A stretch of 12,149 bases of DNA, from the IMG/VR virus record IMGVR_UViG_2737471817_000011, positions 1-12,149 of that record; one strand, 5' to 3'. This document shows, piece by piece, positions 2,973-12,149 of the stretch. The translations under genes were made by a program, and so were the position numbers. The stretch's first letter is position 1. Each line of letters opens with the position of its first letter. The stretch comes from a virus (taxonomy: Duplodnaviria; Heunggongvirae; Uroviricota; Caudoviricetes). The notes beneath the pieces were generated by a model. That model did not search any database, was not told the DNA's origin, and saw only the letters and a list, made by a program, of their open reading frames with translations.

Positions 2973-3158
2973 CTACGAATTATGTTGTTTTTTAGCTTCA
3001 GCTTTCCATTCATCAAAGGCAGTGTCTTTGTTCATGGTGCTGATATTGATCTTACGGTCAATATCATATACACGCCACTCACCGTTAGGCCTCTCTTCGC
3101 ATCTAACTAAGTATGAATTGCCATTAATATCTATGCGTCTGTCTATTTGCATGAACAT
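2973..3158 (-). CDS. Hypothetical small protein (61 aa from the first ATG; track ORF uses a TTG two codons upstream at 3164)
   Basis: ORF MFMQIDRRIDINGNSYLVRCEERPNGEWRVYDIDRKINISTMNKDTAFDEWKAEAKKQHNS. I recognise no family. It is flanked by AT-rich gaps on both sides, unlike the overlapping genes upstream. Confidence 0.35.
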   Translation of the reverse strand: MFMQIDRRIDINGNSYLVRCEERPNGEWRVYDIDRKINISTMNKDTAFDEWKAEAKKQHNS

Positions 3159-3275
3159 TTTCAATTTTCGAATCCTCTTTAATATGCATTTTTTGCTATT
3201 TCAGTAGTTTACTATTGATGAGGCGTTATTATACACACTTCATTAATGCAAGCATCTTTATGCTATGCTACTAAT

Positions 3276-3557
3276 TTAGCCATCAATATTCACCTTTATC
3301 GCGTACACCTTTACCGGTTTATCGCCGAAGTGCGGATGTGTGATTGTCTTGATTTCATAGCCGCCATACGGAACGTCAATTCTGCGGCTGGAATCGTCGC
3401 GCTTCGGATATCCCTTTGTGATAATCAGGCTGTCATACTCCCGTAACATAATTCGCTTATTCCAATAGTCATTACACAGGCGATACTCTTCCGTTTTCTC
3501 TCCTCGAATCATGGCATCGAAGTATTCACCTTTGACGGCAAGTTGTAGGTTAGCCAC
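3276..3557 (-). CDS. 93-aa phage accessory protein; N-terminal motif resembles PUA-like ASCH/DUF3850 beta-barrel proteins; positional analogue of lambda ea8.5
   Basis: ORF MANLQLAVKGEYFDAMIRGEKTEEYRLCNDYWNKR... The pattern hydrophobic-x-(E/P)YF-x-A-x-x-x-G-x-KT-x-E-x-R is typical of ASCH/DUF3850 N-termini. Its start overlaps the stop of the upstream Lar-like gene by 8 bp (operon). Confidence 0.5.
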   Translation of the reverse strand: MANLQLAVKGEYFDAMIRGEKTEEYRLCNDYWNKRIMLREYDSLIITKGYPKRDDSSRRIDVPYGGYEIKTITHPHFGDKPVKVYAIKVNIDG

Positions 3558-3852
3558 GGTTAACCTCCTGCGGAGTAGCCTTTACAAGCACTGGTGCAAA
3601 TCCATCTTCATTAAGGTTATGAATATAGACTTCTGTTCTCCTGCGCTCTTCAACGTTTAATATTGTTTCTGGATCATAAACCCATACTTTCATTCGACTA
3701 TTCCATGAAGAAATCGCTTCAGATCTAGTTCGTTTTTCTGGTCCTTGGGCACCACATTTGCATGACACATAGCGCATTTTCCCTCTGATACTGAATGAGT
3801 ATCCGATGTTAAGCACAGTGGAACCACAGAATGGGCAGCGATATAGATTCAT
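3550..3852 (-). CDS. Lar-family zinc-ribbon protein (putative restriction-alleviation / modification-enhancement protein)
   Basis: 100-aa ORF MNLYRCPFCGSTVLNIGYSFSIRGKMRYVSCKCGAQGPEK with a CPFCG...C-x-CG four-cysteine zinc ribbon near the N-terminus, as in Lar (RalR-like) proteins. AGGTGGA Shine-Dalgarno upstream. ATGA start/stop overlap with the upstream 254-aa gene. Confidence 0.6.
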   Translation of the reverse strand: MNLYRCPFCGSTVLNIGYSFSIRGKMRYVSCKCGAQGPEKRTRSEAISSWNSRMKVWVYDPETILNVEERRRTEVYIHNLNEDGFAPVLVKATPQEVNRG

Positions 3853-4614: not shown

Positions 4615-4824
4615 CTAATTCCCCTTGGTGCTGACTTTGACGCCAACCTTGCGAATCTCATCGGCGCATCTGTTCACGATACTCCGGTGAAACTCACAAA
4701 AAATTTTCGCCGACTGCGGCCCTAATGGGTGAACATCGTGCGCACGCGGCAGTACAACCTCCCGCGCCTCCATGTCAGCAATCCGCTTGTCTTTGGCTTC
4801 CAGCTCATTCAGCAGCGCCAGCAA
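4615..4824 (-). CDS. Questionable small ORF at the deletion junction (TTG start in track; possible 5'-truncated remnant of an early-left gene)
   Basis: Translation LLNELEAKDKRIADMEAREVVLPRAHDVHPLGPQSAKIFCEFHRSIVNRCADEIRKVGVKVSTKGN. No ATG with a Shine-Dalgarno at its 5' end; an in-frame stop lies only 8 codons upstream. It ends 4 bp before the 254-aa gene start. Confidence 0.25.
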   Translation of the reverse strand: MLALLNELEAKDKRIADMEAREVVLPRAHDVHPLGPQSAKIFCEFHRSIVNRCADEIRKVGVKVSTKGN

Positions 4825-5747
4825 TTCAGCAGATTGATACTGAGATATCTAATCTGCAGAAGCTTGGTAAGGTGGCTGATAACGAGACTATTTCAAAACT
4901 TCAGTCATATCGTGATGAGCTTGTTCGCAATGCTGGTCCTGATGGTCCGGTCAATCTGGATTTGAAGCAATTAAGCGATCTGCGCAGCCAGTTCAGAATG
5001 GACGTGAAGGGTGAGCGACCAGTGTTACCAAACCGTTCCGATGCTGCCATTCAGCGAGTTTACAAGGCGATGACCGACGATATCAATGGTGCCATTGGTC
5101 AGAATCTTGGCAATGATACTCTTCGTAAATATCAGCAGGCCAATGCCGTCTACGCTGACGAAGCGGCGAAACTAAAGAATACCAGGCTGAAGAATGTTCT
5201 CATGAAAGGCGACCTGACTCCGGAAGTTGTCAACAACATGCTATTCAGCAAGAACAAATCGGAAATTAAGACTCTGTATAACTCAGTTGGTCGTGTTGGC
5301 AGGGCGCAAATGCGCAATGGCATCATTGGAAAGGCGATGGAGAAATCAGGTGGTTCCCCTGACCAGTTCCTTCGGCAGCTTAATATCCTGCAAAACCATA
5401 CTGGCATCACATTTAAGGGGCAGGACTCTGCTTATCTGAAAGGATTAAAAAACTACCTGCAATCCACGCAGCAGGCTGCAAAAGCGGCAGTAACAACACC
5501 CACAGGGCAGCAAACTATCCCGTTCATTATTGGGTATGGGACGGCAATGAACCCGGCGACAACTGGCGCAGCAGTAAGCTATGGACTTCTTACGCGCGTC
5601 TATGAGAGCGAGCCATTCAGAAATGCAATGCTCCGAATGGCAAACACCCCGCGCGGATCAACAGCGTTTGAGAAAGCCATGCAGCAGGCACAAAAGGCAA
5701 TTAACGCTATGACGCAGGGGGCTAAGTCTGATGCGTTGTCAGAATAG
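4725..5747 (+). pseudogene. Probable 3' fragment of a P22-like internal virion / DNA-ejection protein gene (gp16-like by position); the first ~35 codons of the track ORF are probably not coding
   Basis: Long + strand ORF ending 90 bp before a convergent mnt-like gene, the position gene 16 occupies relative to mnt in P22. The C-terminal region is Ala/Gln-rich (QQAAKAAVTTPTGQQ...MQQAQKAINAMTQGAK). The N-terminal 4725-4830 is GC-rich, low-complexity and overlaps a minus-strand ORF. Confidence 0.4.
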
Positions 5748-5836
5748 CTTTTCAAACACCAGGAAAGTACAAAAACCAAATATGTAGAATGCAATATTCA
5801 TCATATCTCTTTGCATAAATCCTCCGTAATGGATGG

Positions 5837-6097
5837 TTAGTTGCTGTCTTTTTTATATAGCTCCTTGAGCGTATCAAAGACAATTTTCTTAACCATATCA
5901 GATTGTTGTTCTGCCATACGCTCTGCATCGTCAATGTAAACTGATGCAGAGCTTTGTTTATCCAATGATTCTTCAATCGCTGCAATTATCTCTGAGTTCA
6001 GCGACCTGTTATTCATCTTCGCACGCTGCTTAATTTTCGCGTGGAGTTCATGCGGAAGTCTCAAGTGAAACTGCGCCTCGTCGTATTTGCTGTACAT
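5837..6097 (-). CDS. mnt: Mnt-like ribbon-helix-helix repressor (immI-type)
   Basis: From the internal ATG at 6095-6097 (AAGGA Shine-Dalgarno upstream): MYSKYDEAQFHLRLPHELHAKIKQRAKMNNRSLNSEIIAAIEESL...DAERMAEQQSDMVKKIVFDTLKELYKKDSN. Closely parallels P22 Mnt as I recall it (FNFRMPMEV...GRSMNSELLQIVQDAL...DAERLADEQSELVKKMVFDTLKDLYKK). Confidence 0.8.
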   Translation of the reverse strand: MYSKYDEAQFHLRLPHELHAKIKQRAKMNNRSLNSEIIAAIEESLDKQSSASVYIDDAERMAEQQSDMVKKIVFDTLKELYKKDSN

Positions 6098-6170
6098 CCT
6101 TGATGCCTCACCAGTTGGGTGGAATGGCATCGTAACCTACTGGATAAATACTCAACAGTACCATTTCGGT

Positions 6171-6193
6171 ATGCAATCACATCATGATTGCAT
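6171..6193. promoter_or_regulatory. Perfect 9-bp inverted repeat with 5-bp spacer (ATGCAATCA-catca-TGATTGCAT); candidate operator upstream of mnt
   Basis: Read directly at 6171-6193. Lies in the 131-bp gap between the mnt start (6097) and the HNH gene stop (6229), where an immI-type operator/promoter would be expected. Confidence 0.45.
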
Positions 6194-6228
6194 CATATCA
6201 TTCGTCTGGAGCAATGAAATGTCAGATA

Positions 6229-6729
6229 TCACCTACTCAACAGATGGTCAGCAACCATGTTTGCTGCCTTATAAGCTATAGCAGCTTCATCAATGGTGTT
6301 GAATCTCCCAAGGGTTATGTTTTTACCTGAGACATTTATCTGAGCTTGCCATTGATTTCTGGCTTGACAGAAAGTTACCCCCTTGATCCCAGCATTGCTA
6401 TTTCGAGGTCCGACATTTAATGCATTTACGACTCTGCTGACATCCCTAAGGTTTGAGATTGCGTTATTTCTTCTGTTTCTATCAATGTGGTCAATCTCTT
6501 GTTTGGGCCATTCGCCATATACATACAGCCAGGCAAGTCTATGTGCAAAATATCTTACGCCATCAATATTAATTGCGTTATATCCATAAGAAATTGTGCC
6601 AGCAACTTTCCCAACAGCACCTCTGGCGCTTAATTTCTTTTTCCAAGTGAAAATTCCTGTTTCTTTATTGTAATCGAGAACCTCCATAAGGCGCTCCCGA
6701 GTTACTACCTCGTGACGTCTCTTACTCAT
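6229..6729 (-). CDS. HNH endonuclease with C-terminal AP2-type DNA-binding domain (homing-endonuclease-like)
   Basis: From the ATG at 6727-6729 (GGAG Shine-Dalgarno upstream): [14 protein letters not shown]... HNH_3-type motif [36 protein letters not shown], then AP2-like [43 protein letters not shown]. Confidence 0.8.
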
Positions 6730-6751
6730 TATTTTCTCCGGAATGTTTATT

Positions 6752-8644
6752 ATGCCAGAACAATTATACAACGTTGTTGTTTCACAACCAAGTCAGTTAT
6801 TTACTTTAGCTCGCTCGTTTAAAGCAAATGCCAATGGCAAAATTTATATCGGAAAAATTGACACTGACCCTGTAAATCCTGAAAACCAGATTCAGGTTTA
6901 TGTGGAAAACGAAGACGGCTCTCACGTTCCTGTATCGCAACCAATCATCATTAACGCTGCTGGTTACCCGGTATATAACGGACAGATTTCCAAGTTCGTA
7001 ACCGCGCAAGGCTATTCTATGGCTGTGTACGATGCATACGGCTCTCAGGAGTATTACTTCTCGAGAGTTAAAAATGACACGCGGTCAGTCACATCATTCC
7101 TGAGTAGCAGGGAATTATGGAAGAAGTACTTGAAGGAATTTGGAATCGTTCTAGTTGATGGTAGCTTTGAGGAAGGGGCAACAGTTAGCGCACCAAATCA
7201 GGCTGTATGGTATAAGTTTGATGGAAAGTGCTATGCAAGAGTAACCGGAGATAGCGTTATCGTTGCATCTGGCTCATCGCCAGACTCAGGCTGGACATCT
7301 GACATTGGCTCACGCATTAAAGCGTGGCTCCCTAATACATCACCAAATACAGATGTATCTACGCGTTTGCAGGCATTGCTTACAGTCGGGAAAGGTGAGA
7401 TTAAAATCCCTGACGGGCGCTATACGGTAAACACCGTCCTTATTACTAACTTTAGCGATTCATCATTCCCATCACTGGGGGCTGGCAGTCCACGTTATAA
7501 TTTTAGCGGTTCATCGATTAACAATACTATTTTCACGGTTTCTGATAATTACTTGCTGAATCACACTGGTGGGGTGAGCGGAACTGTAGTTCATGGAACA
7601 AACACTTATATGAGAACCGGTGATTGTCAGATAATTGGAACTGGAGCAACAAGTAGCGGTGGTTTCAAGTTTAGTTTTTGCACATTTATTGAAGTCGAAA
7701 ATATACGTGCAGCATTGCTTGGAATTCCAGTGTATTTTGCAAACTGCATATATAACTATGTGCGAAACATCAGAGTTGATAATTCTCTGTACGGCATATT
7801 TACAGAAAGTTCAGATCCATCATTCCCAACAAATTCAACATTTGTTGATGATTCAACATTTACTTACTGCTCAAGATATGCTGTAGAGGCGACCATTGGT
7901 CTCACCTTTAACATGACCAATTGCAGTATTGAGAAAAATGGTGTACAAGGTGATGTAAATACTGGTGGGATTTATTTAAAGGTTACTGAGCCGTTAAGTG
8001 TTATAAATATCACTGGAACGTATTTTGAAGCAAACAAAGGAAATGCTGACATAACTGTCCTTAACTCTGGCGGCGGCACCATAGTCGTAAATTTAATAGG
8101 TTGCACGTTTAACAGAGGTAACTCAGATGGGGGTTATACATTAACAAACTTCAAATCACTGTCTCATGCAGGGGTTGGTAAGATTATACTAAATCTACAA
8201 GGGTGTCATTTCTTCTCAAATACATCGTGGGGATTTACTCCATCGGCTGATAAACCTTTTATTACACCTGACACATGGCTTACTGTTAATGGTCTGGATA
8301 CATGTACATTCAGTGAAACAACAAGTCTACCAGACACTATTCAATCAAGCTCATCCAGTATTAGCGTCAAGGTTGCTGCGGATGGTACAAAAATCAGCGG
8401 CCCATCCTACATCACAACGTCAAAAACAGGAACTGGAGTTTATTCAGTAACAAGTAATTATCCATTAGGTACATCGCCTGTTGGCAATGATTATTCCGTA
8501 ATGGCTATATCCAACATCGATGGTTTTGTTGTTACAAGCTCGGCAAATCAAAGTGCAACTTCCTTTAATGTAAGAACTAAAAGTTCTTCCGGTTCCGCTG
8601 CAGACACAGCCTTTAGTGTGACAATTACAAGACGAATTGGGTGA
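6752..8644 (+). CDS. Tailspike protein: P22-type N-terminal head-binding domain plus a distinct beta-helix-like receptor-binding domain
   Basis: Residues ~10-105 ([72 protein letters not shown]...AVYDAYGSQ) parallel the P22 gp9 head-binding domain as I recall it. The rest is Ser/Thr/Asn/Gly-rich with repeated N-x-(S/T) and Cys-containing short repeats, typical of right-handed beta-helix depolymerases. Alternative start at 6743. Confidence 0.85.
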
Positions 8645-8649
8645 TTAAG

Positions 8650-8679
8650 GATGGCGCATATGCGCCATCTTTTTATTTA
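8650..8679. terminator. Bidirectional intrinsic terminator between convergent tailspike and gtrC genes
   Basis: Perfect 20-bp palindrome GATGGCGCATATGCGCCATC (8650-8669) followed on the + strand by TTTTTATTTA. The gtrC stop codon (8673-8675) lies in the T-run. Confidence 0.65.
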
Positions 8680-9947
8680 TTGATTACGCAATCATAAAAG
8701 GCTGATACCTGACCTAAATTACCAAAAAACCAATACTCTCTGTTGTTAATATATCTATATGTATATGGCGTTGAGATTCTATTAACTTTAATTCCATTTT
8801 TACACGACCCATTAAACCTTGCAGATTCAATTGTTGATTCTCTTAATGAATCTTGTGCTGAATATGCAACAGCTGCCTTAAGAGCAAGTAATGATGATGG
8901 AACCGACAGTAACACGATGGATAGCAAAATTATTATTGATGCCTTGCTTTGTTGTGATATCACCAAAATAGTGGAGCGAGTTATAACTGCTGTCATTATG
9001 CACCATGAGAACATGAATGCCCTTGCTTCTGTGTATGGTGACATAATCATTGAACCATCAACAAGAACAGCGGCAATAATACAGAGCCATATTTTTACAC
9101 TCGCTTTATTGGTATAAATTAAATATCCAATTGAAATAACGGATATAAACATTAAAAACCATGATGTAGTTACGAAAACAGTGATAACATCAATAATTCT
9201 TGCCGTGATGTAATCAATGCTCATTCCATTGTAATTTAAAGCATGTTGATAAAATTCCTTTCTCCGTACTGTTGATGGAGCTAGAACAATGATAATCCAT
9301 CCTGCCAACACAAAAATCATAGGAATAATGCGCTTTATTGATAGATTATCATTAATAAAACAAAATAATAACATCGTTATAAGTAAAGCAACTGGTACAT
9401 TTTCAAAACTAAGTCCAGCCAAGAGACATGCAAATAAATACACGCAATAATATTTTATTTTTATTTTTTCAATTAAATTGTAATTTATATACACAAGCAA
9501 TACCGATAGCGTTATTACCATCGGTTGCAGGTATCCAGCATTTGCTGTTTTCCAGAAAAAAACCTCAAATCCAGGCCAGAACGAATATATTGCAATAATT
9601 GAAACGCATGTCCCAAACATAGCGTTATTGCTATCATCTGAGAAAATCCTGAAAATAATATAAGATAGGGCCAAAAAAGAAATAATTGATACGACTATAA
9701 AAAATGTTGGCGGCATGCTCAAGTTAAATATTGCAAGTTGCTCACCAAGCCTTGCGTTCCACATTTCAATTTGTCTTGCTGATCTTTCAACTGAATACAT
9801 GATTCTTGTAATCAAGTCGTGATTAATGAATCTTTTGGTTAATGCAAAATCCTCACCAGCCAATGGGAATATTGAGAATGTTATTGCATAAACAGATGTA
9901 AGAAAGCCTGCAACTATGTAGATGCAGCGATTTATGTTATTTACCAC
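8673..9947 (-). CDS. gtrC: GtrC-type serotype-specific O-antigen glucosyltransferase (polytopic membrane protein)
   Basis: 424-aa, strongly hydrophobic ORF with many predicted transmembrane segments, immediately downstream of gtrA-gtrB and overlapping the gtrB stop by 11 bp. GTG start 5 nt after AGGAGG. Very AT-rich (only 11 G/C in 9421-9480). Confidence 0.75.
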
Positions 9948-10863
9948 ATTCCCCTCCTTTCAGAATATAGCGCGGACGATGCTTAACTTCTGTATAAATT
10001 CTGCCAATATATTCACCAAGAACGCCGATTCCAATCAATTGAATGCCACCGAGGAATAGTATTGATACAAGAAGTGACGGATACCCAGGAACGTTGTTGC
10101 CAAACATCAGCTTGTCAATAATCATCCACGAGCCATACATAAATGACAGGCTGGCGACAAAAAGGCCAATGTATGTCCACATTCTCAGTGGTAAGGTAGA
10201 GAAGCTGGTGATTCCTTCGAGTGCCAGATTCCATAACTTCCACCCGTTGAATTTAGAATCACCTGCGACGCGTTCTGCCCTGGCATACTCAACAACATCT
10301 GTGCGTCCGCCAACCCAGCTCAGCACGCCCTTCATAAATAGGTTGCGTTCCGGCATGAGTTTTATGTTCTCCACGACCTCGCGGGACATCAGACGGAAGT
10401 CACCAACGTTTTCTTCAATCTTCGGATGACTAATTTTGTTGTGCAGTTTATAAAACCACTCAGCGGTTTTTCGCTTTAATCTTCCATCAGTAGATCGATC
10501 TGATCGTTTTGCAAGCACCATATCAGCACCTGCCTGCCACTTTTCAATAAGATGAGGAATAACCTCAATCGGGTCTTGCAGGTCAACATCAATTGGAATT
10601 ACAGCATCTCCGGTTGCATGGTCTAACCCTGCAAACAATGCTGGTTCTTTACCAAAGTTTCGTGTAAATGACAGCGGAACAACTAGAGGATCTGAAACGG
10701 ACAGAGCGTTAATGATTGACTCCGTAGCGTCTTTGCTACCATCATTTATAAAAACAATTTCCACTTCATATGGCTTCAACTCTTCGAATTCACGTACCGT
10801 TTTATAAAAAATTGGTATCGCTTCCTCTTCATTGAAGACAGGAACGACCAGAGATATCTTCAT
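9937..10863 (-). CDS. gtrB: GtrB bactoprenol (undecaprenyl-phosphate) glucosyltransferase, GT2 family
   Basis: 308-aa [53 protein letters not shown]... (GT2 N-terminal fold, DxD-type region PIDVDLQDP) with two C-terminal transmembrane helices, the classic GtrB/YfdH architecture. 4-bp ATGA overlap with gtrA. Confidence 0.92.
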
Positions 10864-11222
10864 TTCGCATCCCTAAAGACAATGAACTTTGAATAGACGA
10901 AACCGCACACCAAGCTGATGGCGGAGAAGGTGACAAGAGTGACAATTGGAGGAAGTGCACATCTATCAGCAGCCCATCCAACAGTAGCACTCAGTGTTCC
11001 CATGAACCCGACATATAACATGTAACGCATCGTTGTAGTTGATGCTTTGAATGTGAATTTTGCATTCGCGAAGAAGCTAAAACTCACAGCCACAACAAAA
11101 CCTGCGAAGTTTGCAAGAGCCTGATTTGTATGCGCGGCATAGATACATACACCAAAAACCACCCAGTGTATAAGTGTGTTCAGCACACCAATCGAGGTGT
11201 ACTTTGCAAATAGCTTTAACAT
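10860..11222 (-). CDS. gtrA: GtrA flippase-family small membrane protein
   Basis: 120-aa [62 protein letters not shown]... with four predicted transmembrane helices. Recognised from memory as GtrA (YfdG-like). First gene of the gtr operon, as in P22 and Shigella serotype-converting phages. Confidence 0.92.
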
Positions 11223-11672: not shown

Positions 11673-12149
11673 TTAACTAAACATCGCAGTAATCGAGGCG
11701 CTTGCCAGAGAGTGGAAATGAACGTTAAACCCGACCATCGCGCCGCTGGCACCTTCATCGACATCAATACGTTCTATATCCAGCGCGTGAACGGTAAAAA
11801 TGTAGCGATGAGTTTCGCCTTTCGGCGGTGCTGCGCCATCGTACCCGGTTTTACCAAAGTCGGTACGCGTCTGCAAAACGCCGTCTGGCATTGCTACCAG
11901 ACCAGAGCCAAACCCTTGCGGTAATACGCGGGTATCAGCGGGTAAGTTAACAACTACCCAGTGCCACCAGCCGGAGCCGGTTGGCGCATCCGGGTCATAG
12001 CAGGTGACGACAAAACTTTTCGTTCCCGCAGGAACATCATCCCACGCCAGATGCGGTGAAATATTATCGCCATCGTAACCCATGCCGTTAAAGACATGAC
12101 GATGCGGCAACTTATCGCCATCGCGCAGATCATTACTGATGAGTTTCAT
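11673..12149 (-). CDS. ybhB: YbhB, PEBP (phosphatidylethanolamine-binding protein / RKIP) family protein
   Basis: 158-aa ORF MKLISNDLRDGDKLPHRHVFNGMGYDGDNISPHLAWDDVPAGTKSFVVTCYDPDAPTGSGWWHW..., PEBP signature DPDAP...GxxHW. Start codon is the last 3 bases of the window. Known neighbour of attB-lambda on the bio side. Confidence 0.88.
   Translation of the reverse strand: MKLISNDLRDGDKLPHRHVFNGMGYDGDNISPHLAWDDVPAGTKSFVVTCYDPDAPTGSGWWHWVVVNLPADTRVLPQGFGSGLVAMPDGVLQTRTDFGKTGYDGAAPPKGETHRYIFTVHALDIERIDVDEGASGAMVGFNVHFHSLASASITAMFS

Follow-up and report, generated by a model that had tools for sequence, protein, structure and literature searches.

A lone mnt gene beside the tailspike gene of a P22-like prophage remnant, and a likely operator adjoining a lineage-specific palindrome

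The mnt gene and its product

The window, by which we mean the whole stretch of 12,149 nt that was analyzed, contains a ~10-kb prophage remnant at the lambda attachment site (ybhC-ybhB). Its mnt gene (5837..6097, minus strand) encodes an 86-aa repressor of the Mnt family, with an N-terminal ribbon-helix-helix and a C-terminal Mnt tetramerisation helix. The reading frame is uninterrupted on the minus strand and covers 5837-6130 when counted from a longer ATG (97 aa); in this 97-aa frame the ribbon-helix-helix domain is matched by Pfam Arc (PF03869, 1.1e-14, residues 18-60) and the C-terminal coiled-coil tetramerisation domain by Repressor_Mnt (PF11423, 3.3e-14). In PDB, residues 6-79 of Mnt match 1MNT (phmmer, 5e-19) and residues 56-84 match the tetramerisation domain 1QEY (1.7e-8). 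The unbroken frame and these matches bear out the original prediction of an intact Mnt-type ribbon-helix-helix repressor, and judging by its domains the protein is a true member of this type, with a predicted oligomeric state. Its DNA-reading strand is QFHLR (..DEAQFHLRL..). RefSeq phage records mislabel this mnt as 'partition protein ATPase'.

As homologues in other genera begin at the corresponding position, with M(M/I/V)YSKYDE or MIYKEDE, the start of mnt was fixed at ATG 6097; PGAP calls are 86-88 aa long. Translation probably does not begin at the in-frame ATG 6130. Reading the ST64T sequence directly, we find an in-frame stop in the stretch equivalent to 6098-6130, and the codons of this extension vary non-synonymously among close relatives (P to Q/L, T to I/F/L/P). 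The stretch 6098..6130 (minus strand) is probably the 5' untranslated leader of mnt, with a candidate Shine-Dalgarno sequence GGTGAGG at 6112-6106. Codons 1-50 carry 43 synonymous and 45 non-synonymous variants in the phage population, where 19% would be expected to be synonymous, and mnt, including its DNA-binding domain, is thus under purifying selection.

The mnt-only layout and the HNH insertion

The plus strand to the left of mnt carries a gene 16-like DNA transfer protein gene, of which the 3' half is present (PHROG 770, 1.5e-122), so that mnt runs against the direction of the late operon between this gene and the tailspike gene, as in Sf101. On the right, a relic tailspike start (6208..6233, plus strand) is preserved, with the Shine-Dalgarno sequence GGAG (6208-6211) followed by the ATG and codons 1-5, MSDIT (6219-6233), 121 bp from ATG 6097. 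Sf101 and IME10 are collinear with the window up to 6233 and then run into their tailspike genes, whereas in the window translation from the relic start now opens a 20-codon dead-end ORF. Mnt is therefore encoded alone, divergent from and adjacent to the original tailspike start, in a layout that has been secondarily interrupted by an HNH gene.

Searches with Pfam and PHROGs found no Arc- or Ant-like protein encoded in the 12,149-nt window, confirming the claimed absence of arc and ant; an immI arrangement as in P22, with arc and ant under the control of Pant, is accordingly not present in the window. Sf101, carrying the same mnt module, has neither arc nor ant in its whole genome, and no QFHLR-type mnt was found next to arc/ant among phage records, ~290 E. 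coli genomes and at least 200 viral and metagenomic loci, nor in the Klebsiella, Rahnella or distant homologues that we examined. The description of mnt as an 'orphan' is thus true of the gene content, but for this allele the arrangement is the usual one: the same allele lies directly beside the tailspike gene both in Sf101 and IME10 and, among 5426 complete E. coli genomes, in ~290. Nor is the orphan state new, as the ant morons of ST64T, ST104 and Para1 were reported to consist of mnt and one unknown gene only (PMC2629481), and that of phage L is likewise mnt-only (bioRxiv 10.1101/2020.10.05.325894). We take the locus to be the mnt-only version of this variable 'ant moron' between the DNA-transfer and tailspike genes of P22-like phages.

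Comparison with individual relatives sets this version apart from others. The mnt genes of Sf101 and IME10 (Lederbergvirus) and of the ~290 E. coli prophages are 97-98% identical to that of the window and share its leader, including the palindrome described below (with one mismatch in Sf101), as well as a tailspike ATG at the position of window 6219; Sf101 and IME10 differ in being complete phages with an uninterrupted tailspike gene. ST64T, ST104, L, SE1, ST160 and coliphage Gally also have a lone mnt divergent from the adjacent tailspike gene and retain an operator dyad, which is strong and P22-like in the mnt-only layouts of ST64T, ST160 and Gally. However, the proteins of this ST64T type read QFNLR, their dyad (AAGACCAC-C-GTGGTCTT) has 8-bp arms, the leader of their tailspike gene is P22-type and they have no HNH insertion.

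The inserted gene (6229..6729, minus strand) encodes an HNH_3/AP2 endonuclease of 166 aa (Pfam HNH_3, 2.5e-16; PHROG 99, 7e-63). Beyond it the tailspike gene continues with a replaced N-terminus (6752..8644, plus strand, with an alternative ATG at 6743; Pfam Head_binding, 3.4e-55), identical to that of phage Kapi1 (MPEQLYN). The HNH protein is 100% identical to that of Kapi1 (Kapi1_066, between ant and tailspike), inserted after the same tailspike codon 5, and 80% identical to the one at this insertion point in Rahnella and metagenomic phages. Kapi1 otherwise differs: its mnt-arc-ant module is complete and has another specificity, and its leader is P22-type and lacks the palindrome. An HNH gene follows tailspike codon 5 in the window, Kapi1, VE-T9, Rahnella L260 and L263, while the site is empty in Sf101 and L264; this presence/absence polymorphism, together with the HNH domain, marks a predicted free-standing HNH homing endonuclease. 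From this comparison, the HNH gene is a secondary insertion outside the mnt module. It is a later insertion, probably of the homing type, that moved the tailspike start by 530 bp, and would be unrelated to control by Mnt. The suggestion that Mnt regulates the HNH gene is not supported: the gene begins at 6729, 500 bp from both sites discussed below, which lie downstream of its stop codon, and of the ~290 E. coli genomes with this mnt only 2 have it.

A dyad and a palindrome upstream of mnt

The region upstream of mnt aligns with the regulatory region of P22. A putative P22-like Pmnt (6129..6155, minus strand) consists of a -35 element TTGAGT (6155-6150) and a -10 element TACGAT (6134-6129) and aligns with the annotated Pmnt of P22 (TTGAGA-17-TATCAT); TTG of the -35 element is invariant in all 12 sequences aligned with MAFFT. 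The spacer is 15 nt in the window and 17 nt in the K_EC180, VSe13, Klebsiella and Rahnella types, and owing to this short spacer Pmnt falls below the threshold of a consensus promoter scan; its activity as a promoter is suggested by the alignment. A spacer of 15 nt is unfavourable for sigma-70. In the rightward, tailspike-directed orientation no promoter reached the scan threshold, and the homologue of Pant is degenerate, reading TAAATA at the -10 position where P22 has TATATT.

Next to the -35 element of Pmnt lies the dyad GTACC-ATTTC-GGTAT (6158..6172, centre 6165), which by homology to the mnt operator of P22 is a likely operator of the QFHLR-type Mnt. In the MAFFT alignment it occupies the same columns as the operator annotated in BK000583, GGTCCAC-G-GTGGACC, and the dyad AGACCAC-C-GTGGTCT of ST64T, and CC/GG at ±3/4 is invariant in 12/12 sequences, as is CAA. 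The form GTACC-N5-GGTAY is kept in all QFHLR-type phages found, in E. coli, Salmonella VSe13, Klebsiella aerogenes, Rahnella and metagenomes, although across the four genera the dyad spacer and all sequence to its right differ (in Rahnella, GTACC-TTAAC-GGTAC). We thus have a candidate odd-centred operator beside Pmnt, in the P22 register and maintained across genera.

The case for this candidate is purely comparative. Its arms are only 4-5 bp, as against 8-9 bp in P22, and the 131-bp spacer holds four perfect 4-N5-4 dyads, so that taken alone it would be unremarkable. An arm is changed in ~9% of Sf101-type contexts (TGTAT in 10; GATAT, GTTAT, GGCAT, ATACC and GAACC in 1-2 each), and therefore the constraint on the dyad is not absolute. 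Since the whole block 6098-6176 is conserved, the promoter, rather than an operator, could in part account for the conserved arms. A conservation map of the spacer within the population was uninformative, the sequences being too similar.

The original prediction had assigned the operator to a different element, the palindrome ATGCAATCA-CATCA-TGATTGCAT (6171..6193), which abuts the dyad with an overlap of 2 nt and begins 74 bp from ATG 6097 and 41 bp from ATG 6130. Its 9-nt arms are 100% complementary around a 5-nt spacer, so that a perfect 23-bp inverted repeat is indeed present in this copy, but most related copies are imperfect. Perfect copies are in the minority (15 of ~225), and only 2 of the 16 haplotypes of the 23-mer in related phages are symmetric; dyad symmetry is thus not maintained in the population. 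The majority form, in the plus sense, is ATGCAATCA-CATCA-TGGTTGCAT, with one mismatch, T against G at ±5. When the 131-bp spacer is shuffled, 1.6% of the shuffles contain a perfect inverted repeat with arms of ≥9 bp and ≤15 nt between them. As the window contains seven such repeats where 0.9 would be expected, including one at 5920-5952 within the coding sequence of mnt, the palindrome is non-random by composition and yet not exceptional for real DNA. It is absent from the LR-50-type and K_EC180 E. coli prophages, VSe13, A3, Klebsiella L261, Rahnella L260 and the metagenomic L263-L266, all of which carry a Mnt with ..AQFHLRL.., and the conserved block that it shares with other QFHLR-type phages takes in only its first ~6 bases. 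By this distribution it belongs only to the Sf101-type tailspike leader.

Several further roles were considered for the two sites and rejected. Additional Mnt targets are not indicated, as dyad and palindrome each occur once in the window and once in the 38.7-kb genome of Sf101. The palindrome is not an intrinsic terminator, having no U-tract, and no terminator-like site was found in 5700-6800; a search of Rfam at E ≤1 gave no known RNA family, apart from a chance miRNA match elsewhere. It is also not the recognition or homing site of the HNH enzyme, as Kapi1 and the Rahnella type have the HNH gene after codon 5 with no palindrome and Sf101-type phages have the palindrome with no HNH gene.

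Could the palindrome nevertheless be the Mnt operator, used for autoregulation, for control of the HNH gene or for action on incoming phages? Like the operator of P22 it is odd-centred, and its 9-bp dyad is perfect; it lies in the sole non-coding stretch upstream of mnt, and its appearance by chance is infrequent in the shuffles. It also overlaps by 2 nt an extended -10-like sequence, TGaTATGAT (6192..6200, minus strand), read directly from the sequence, and follows a promoter-like site of the scan. That overlapping site, CTGACA-17-AATGAT, has 9/12 matches, but the scan returned two sites where 3.2 are expected, and a second leftward promoter at TGaTATGAT is a possible lead only; in the Sf101 lineage such a promoter might be controlled through the palindrome. 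The palindrome accompanies this mnt allele in 159 of 160 leaders, a linkage that is trivial because the two are 40 bp apart. Against the assignment, every other lineage with the same Mnt reading strand is devoid of the palindrome, which is therefore not co-conserved with QFHLR, and the majority haplotype breaks symmetry at ±5, the core of the would-be half-site. That half-site (CA at -4/-3) is unlike the CC/GG core common to the P22, ST64T and QFHLR dyads, the position homologous to the P22 operator is taken by the neighbouring dyad, and the start of HNH, a rare and recent insertion, is 500 bp away. We regard this assignment as quite improbable; the palindrome is probably not a Mnt binding site, and the site directly beside it is the better candidate.

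The palindrome would instead be a hairpin in tailspike-sense RNA or incidental. In late-operon transcripts entering the tailspike gene, such a stem-loop would end 14 nt ahead of the Shine-Dalgarno sequence and influence how the tailspike mRNA is processed, how stable it is or how it is translated. All nine pairs, counting Watson-Crick and G.U, are kept in the plus sense in 13/16 haplotypes, as against 2/16 in the minus sense; one position occurs as U-A, U.G and C-G, and four of five independent arm transitions yield G.U on the plus strand. Other leader types also have a hairpin with plus-sense G.U between dyad and Shine-Dalgarno sequence, CCGUAGC-CAY-GCUGCGG in P22, ST64T and LR-50 and CCGCAG-CUCUG-CUGUGG in Klebsiella and A3, although the VSe13 and Rahnella leaders have no clear equivalent. 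However, four of five transitions corresponds to p ~0.19, most haplotypes inherit a single U.G, and folding energies of Sf101-type leaders on both strands lie within ~2 SD of shuffles (z -1.1 to -1.9) and are not significant. With no Rfam family, no U-tract and hence no terminator function, and with the tailspike start of the window moved away in a prophage that has no late promoter, we hold the stem-loop to be possible but somewhat doubtful. It is compatible with the dyad being the operator. That the palindrome has no function, being an inverted repeat that is incidental to a leader rich in A+T and in ATCA repeats (AATCA CATCA TGATT GCATCA TATCA), is a serious contender which we stop a little short of expecting. 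Its confinement to one lineage, the minority status of the perfect allele, the abundance of inverted repeats in the window and the comparable rates at which loop and arm positions vary all favour it, whereas the strand-biased substitutions and the compensatory C-G variant argue against it.

Possible roles of Mnt with no ant in cis

Taken together, we lean towards a joint explanation in which the locus is an mnt-only ant moron, the dyad is the operator of Mnt, the palindrome is not a Mnt site and the HNH gene is a later insertion. The two-domain Mnt of the window, with its ribbon-helix-helix and tetramerisation helix, shares 49% identity with that of P22 (tblastn), and position and orientation between the DNA-transfer and tailspike genes are the same. 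Its regulatory region is homologous base for base to Pmnt, Pant and the mnt operator of P22, comprising a putative leftward Pmnt, a decayed Pant -10 and a dyad in the same register with invariant CC/GG. Unlike P22, the window lacks arc, ant and sar; where P22 has the reading strand HFNFR and the half-site GGTCCAC, the window has QFHLR and, in the candidate operator, GTACCAT. A Mnt tetramer may bind the dyad with one dimer per half-site, the conserved Arg contacting the invariant CC/GG and the changed residues Q and H the changed outer bases; this assignment of residues to base contacts draws on background knowledge of Mnt and on works cited in PMC3413123. Mnt bound at the dyad would then set its own expression and block transcription crossing between mnt and the tailspike gene.

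An alternative is that Mnt acts mainly in trans, shutting the antirepressor promoter of superinfecting P22-like phages and sparing resident prophages from induction. P22 Mnt acts in this way for P22 (immI immunity), and this precedent, together with purifying selection on mnt although no ant is present in cis, speaks for such a role. However, the QFHLR-type contexts surveyed above are mnt-only without exception, and therefore no ant promoter with a GTACC-type operator is known; moreover, by the ORF list and PHROGs, the prophage of the window has no c2-type repressor left to protect. We thus consider this role unlikely.

More speculative, and in our view rather doubtful, is a reading that goes beyond the mnt-only ant moron, in which mnt-only modules are not relics of immI but a selected, self-contained switch and the three specificity classes form a recognition-code series. 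Mnt bound at the dyad might gate read-through of the late operon into the tailspike gene while setting its own level, a part of the proposal that we advance with equal caution. The classes pair the reading strand HFNFR with the half-site GGTCCAC, QFNLR with AGACCAC and QFHLR with GTACCAT, and it is conceivable, if on the doubtful side, that the residues co-vary with the bases, the first (H/Q) with T/A at -5, the second (N/H) with G/T at -6 and Arg with the invariant CC.

Since the orphan state is ordinary and published, its value as a discovery is small. What is gained is a clean example of an HNH gene homing, in several genera, into P22-like tailspike genes at their first codons, evidence of purifying selection on mnt-only modules, which bears on the role of Mnt without ant, and a testable operator assignment for a widespread and uncharacterised Mnt specificity class (QFHLR with GTACC-N5-GGTAY). 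If true, the specificity series could be used as a natural code by which ribbon-helix-helix proteins recognise DNA.

The mnt gene and its candidate operator

The Mnt-type repressor gene is intact, as the original prediction held. The ORF at 5837-6130 (minus strand) is unbroken; in Pfam it hits Arc (1.1e-14) and Repressor_Mnt (3.3e-14), and among solved structures it aligns with the P22 Mnt entries 1MNT (5e-19, residues 6-79) and 1QEY (1.7e-8). The true start is ATG 6097 rather than ATG 6130, because its counterparts in other genera open with M(M/I/V)YSKYDE or MIYKEDE, ST64T has an in-frame stop in the equivalent of 6098-6130, this stretch varies non-synonymously among close relatives and a Shine-Dalgarno sequence, GGTGAGG, precedes ATG 6097. 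The gene is not in decay: among 111 haplotypes, codons 1-50 hold 43 synonymous and 45 non-synonymous variants (19% expected synonymous), and premature stops occur in only two of the 111. The coding sequence also contains a perfect 10-nt inverted repeat (GCTCTGCATC / GATGCAGAGC, 13-nt spacer, 5920-5952) where it codes for the linker that leads into the tetramerisation helix. Several RefSeq phage records, among them NC_027398 (Sf101), NC_002371 (P22) and NC_011802, name mnt "partition protein ATPase", a label carried by PHROG 795 that is wrong for a ribbon-helix-helix repressor of 83-97 aa.

In the annotated P22 record, mnt starts at ATG 14770, followed by Pant (14793-14821), Pmnt (14798-14826), O_arc (14798-14818) and O_mnt (14822-14844, ATAGGTCCAC-G-GTGGACCTGT). 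At the place of O_mnt, the mnt-only phages ST64T, ST160 and Gally, whose DNA-reading strand is QFNLR, carry CAATA-AGACCAC-C-GTGGTCT. Unsupervised MAFFT alignment of twelve mnt-proximal regions put window 6158-6172 (GTACCAT-T-TCGGTAT) in the same columns as O_mnt and the ST64T dyad, with CAA, CC and GG invariant in all twelve. Distant proteins with the motif ..DEAQFHLRL.. were found by protein search and their genomic contexts then looked up. The dyad reads GTACC-ATTTT-GGTAT in Klebsiella aerogenes, GTACC-TTAAC-GGTAC in Rahnella and one metagenomic phage, where the arms are perfect and the spacer is unrelated, and GTACC-ATTTC-GGTAT in another metagenomic phage; Mnt proteins of this reading strand also go with it in several types of E. 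coli prophage and in Salmonella phage VSe13. In all of these the conserved block stops a few bases past the dyad and the sequence beyond is wholly different. From these alignments we favor, with moderate confidence, the dyad GTACC-N5-GGTAY at 6158-6172 as the operator, so that the candidate site probably lies 13 bp left of the one first proposed. The arms are short, the spacer holds four perfect 4-N5-4 dyads, and arm changes occur in about 9% of ~170 contexts, with TGTAT in one clade.

The half-site co-varies with the reading strand at a fixed register, HFNFR with GGTCCAC, QFNLR with AGACCAC and QFHLR with GTACCAT. This fits the work of Knight and Sauer in 1989 (cited in PMC3413123), who reportedly found that a short N-terminal region sets the specificity of Arc and Mnt, and we infer a pairing of particular Mnt residues with particular bases. 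A Pmnt homologue on the minus strand (TTGAGT 6155-6150, 15 nt, TACGAT 6134-6129) adjoins the dyad and would give an mnt leader of ~25 nt holding the Shine-Dalgarno sequence, and the equivalent of the Pant -10, TAAATA, is probably dead. Comparison of window 6129-6155 (minus strand) with L006, L004 and the Klebsiella and Rahnella regions gave a Pmnt spacer of 15 nt in Sf101- and LR-50-type lineages versus 17 nt in other QFHLR lineages, owing to a 2-bp deletion (GTAA--CC versus GTAAAACC); the shorter spacer may make for a weaker promoter in the lineage to which the window belongs.

The palindrome in the tailspike leader

The inverted repeat that had been proposed as the operator, ATGCAATCA / TGATTGCAT at 6171-6193, was correctly described, with 9-nt arms, 100% complementary, and a 5-nt spacer, and with 74 bp between it and ATG 6097 (41 bp for ATG 6130). 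The window holds no further copy with up to 3 mismatches allowed. The palindrome is restricted to the leader type shared by the window, Sf101 and IME10, and only its first ~six bases fall within the block conserved in QFHLR-type phages. It is absent from other QFHLR leaders, and we conclude with good confidence that it is not the Mnt operator. Among ~225 related copies, which include some contigs fetched twice, we found 16 haplotypes. The majority form is imperfect (plus sense ATGCAATCA-CATCA-TGGTTGCAT), the perfect form of the window is a minority of 15 copies and a compensated C-G form occurs in 7.

What else the palindrome may be is a matter of degree. That it is incidental is quite conceivable, if short of an even chance. 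On composition alone, shuffling the 131-bp spacer gave such an inverted repeat in 1.6% of cases, but the real window contains seven such repeats versus 0.9 expected, one of them within the mnt coding sequence. An RNA hairpin in the tailspike leader is somewhat less likely. All nine pairs are kept in 13 of the 16 haplotypes in the tailspike sense versus 2 of 16 in the mnt sense, although some five independent arm transitions at most, split four to one, underlie this bias. In other leader types, too, a hairpin with plus-sense G.U lies in the stretch that runs from the dyad to the Shine-Dalgarno sequence of the tailspike gene, but folding energies are not significantly below those of shuffles, and the palindrome has neither an Rfam family nor a terminator signature. 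A role as Mnt operator is improbable, and the remainder of our expectation goes to something else. We keep a second, lineage-specific promoter as a possibility because an extended -10-like TGaTATGAT (6200-6192, minus strand) overlaps the palindrome.

In one viral contig (L177), an Sf101-type leader has unrelated sequence, which we guess to be a putative insertion sequence, starting right after ...TGATTGCATAC; the palindrome and tailspike are thereby cut off from the mnt dyad, the sole unlinked case among 160 leaders. In P22 (L005), a direct repeat, AAAATTCACCGTAGCCA(C/T)GCT, lies between ant and gene 9 at 2443-2466 and 2556-2578, and the hairpin of the gene 9 leader, CCGTAGC-CAT-GCTGCGG, is made by the second copy. 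The ST64T-, LR-50- and Kapi1-type leaders share this gene 9 leader, a pattern that suggests either a boundary of recombination or an element conserved in leaders.

HNH insertion and prophage deletion

Homology to Sf101 and IME10 ends at window 6233, codon 5 of their tailspike gene (ATGTCAGATATCACC), and in the window the original tailspike start now opens a 20-codon dead-end ORF. From 6234 on, the sequence matches phage Kapi1, which carries a 100% identical HNH protein at the same point, after tailspike codon 5 (ATGACAGACATTACC|TACTCAACAG). An 80%-identical HNH occupies this point in a Rahnella prophage and a metagenomic phage (L263), and the site is empty in a sister phage (L264). The HNH_3/AP2 insertion lies within 6219-6760 in the window, 3017-3560 in Kapi1 and 1818-2420 in both the Rahnella prophage and L263. 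After it the tailspike restarts with the N-terminus MPEQLYN in place of MSDITAN, divergent from HNH across a gap of only 22 bp. The HNH gene is a later insertion that disrupted the locus, and it looks like a homing endonuclease whose target is the conserved 5' end of the tailspike gene in P22-like phages. Only two of 5426 complete E. coli genomes, VE-T9 being one, have this mnt and HNH together. The suggestion that Mnt regulates HNH is not plausible for control of initiation, because 500 bp separate the HNH start (6729) from any candidate operator and both sites lie beyond the end of the HNH reading frame, past the stop codon.

The locus belongs to a P22-like prophage remnant of ~10 kb between ybhC (1-1284, minus) and ybhB (11673-12149, minus) at the two window ends, the genes that flank the lambda attachment site of E. 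coli. An integrase (1419-2489), an excisionase (2467-2685) and a few early-left genes, one of them for a Lar-like protein, are followed by a DNA-transfer gene reduced to its 3' half (4725-5747, plus; PHROG 770 positions 332-666 of 668), then the Mnt-like gene (5837-6097, minus), HNH and the tailspike gene (Head_binding 3.4e-55), and by three ORFs at 8673-11222 (minus) named from the ORF list as putative gtrC, gtrB and gtrA. The remnant retains neither an immC repressor nor any gene for replication, lysis or the head, and a late promoter is missing as well. The deletion junction lies at about 4615-4830, where a truncated early-left ORF (4615-4824, minus), whose match to PHROG 1667 is confined to the C-terminal half, adjoins the DNA-transfer ORF, whose first ~30 residues are unrelated sequence; ~30 kb of phage DNA (immC, replication, lysis and head genes) was lost there. 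The exact window is absent from the 5426 genomes (best matches 46% coverage, 95% identity), many of which carry similar remnants at the same attachment site.

The mnt-only arrangement

The window encodes neither arc nor ant, as predicted, and mnt does stand without them; that this makes it an unusual orphan is not borne out, the arrangement being shared by Sf101, IME10 and E. coli prophages and already described in the literature. In Sf101 and IME10 an mnt allele 97-98% identical diverges from the tailspike gene across only 88 bp, with no arc or ant, and ant is absent from the entire Sf101 genome. A 1013-bp query over the mnt region matches 291 of the 5426 E. coli genomes, and in the great majority of sampled matches mnt and the first five tailspike codons are covered and the annotation reads "Arc family DNA-binding protein" beside "tailspike". 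Other Mnt classes also have mnt alone beside the tailspike (ST64T, ST160, Gally and VSe13). The QFHLR-type mnt-only prophage of E. coli A3 (L009, 420-2034) has two further genes beyond the far end of mnt, one for a separate helix-turn-helix regulator and one for an antirepressor with a P22AR C-terminal domain; they form a different kind of antirepressor module within the same moron.

Villafane et al. 2008 (PMC2629481) refer to the region as the ant moron, which in ST64T, ST104 and Para1 comprises only mnt and one unknown gene. For phage L, too, an mnt-only moron is on record (bioRxiv 10.1101/2020.10.05.325894). The facts first read from the sequence were right, and their reading as an unusual orphan with its operator was wrong. 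The module of the window is the QFHLR-class case of a known and common mnt-only kind.
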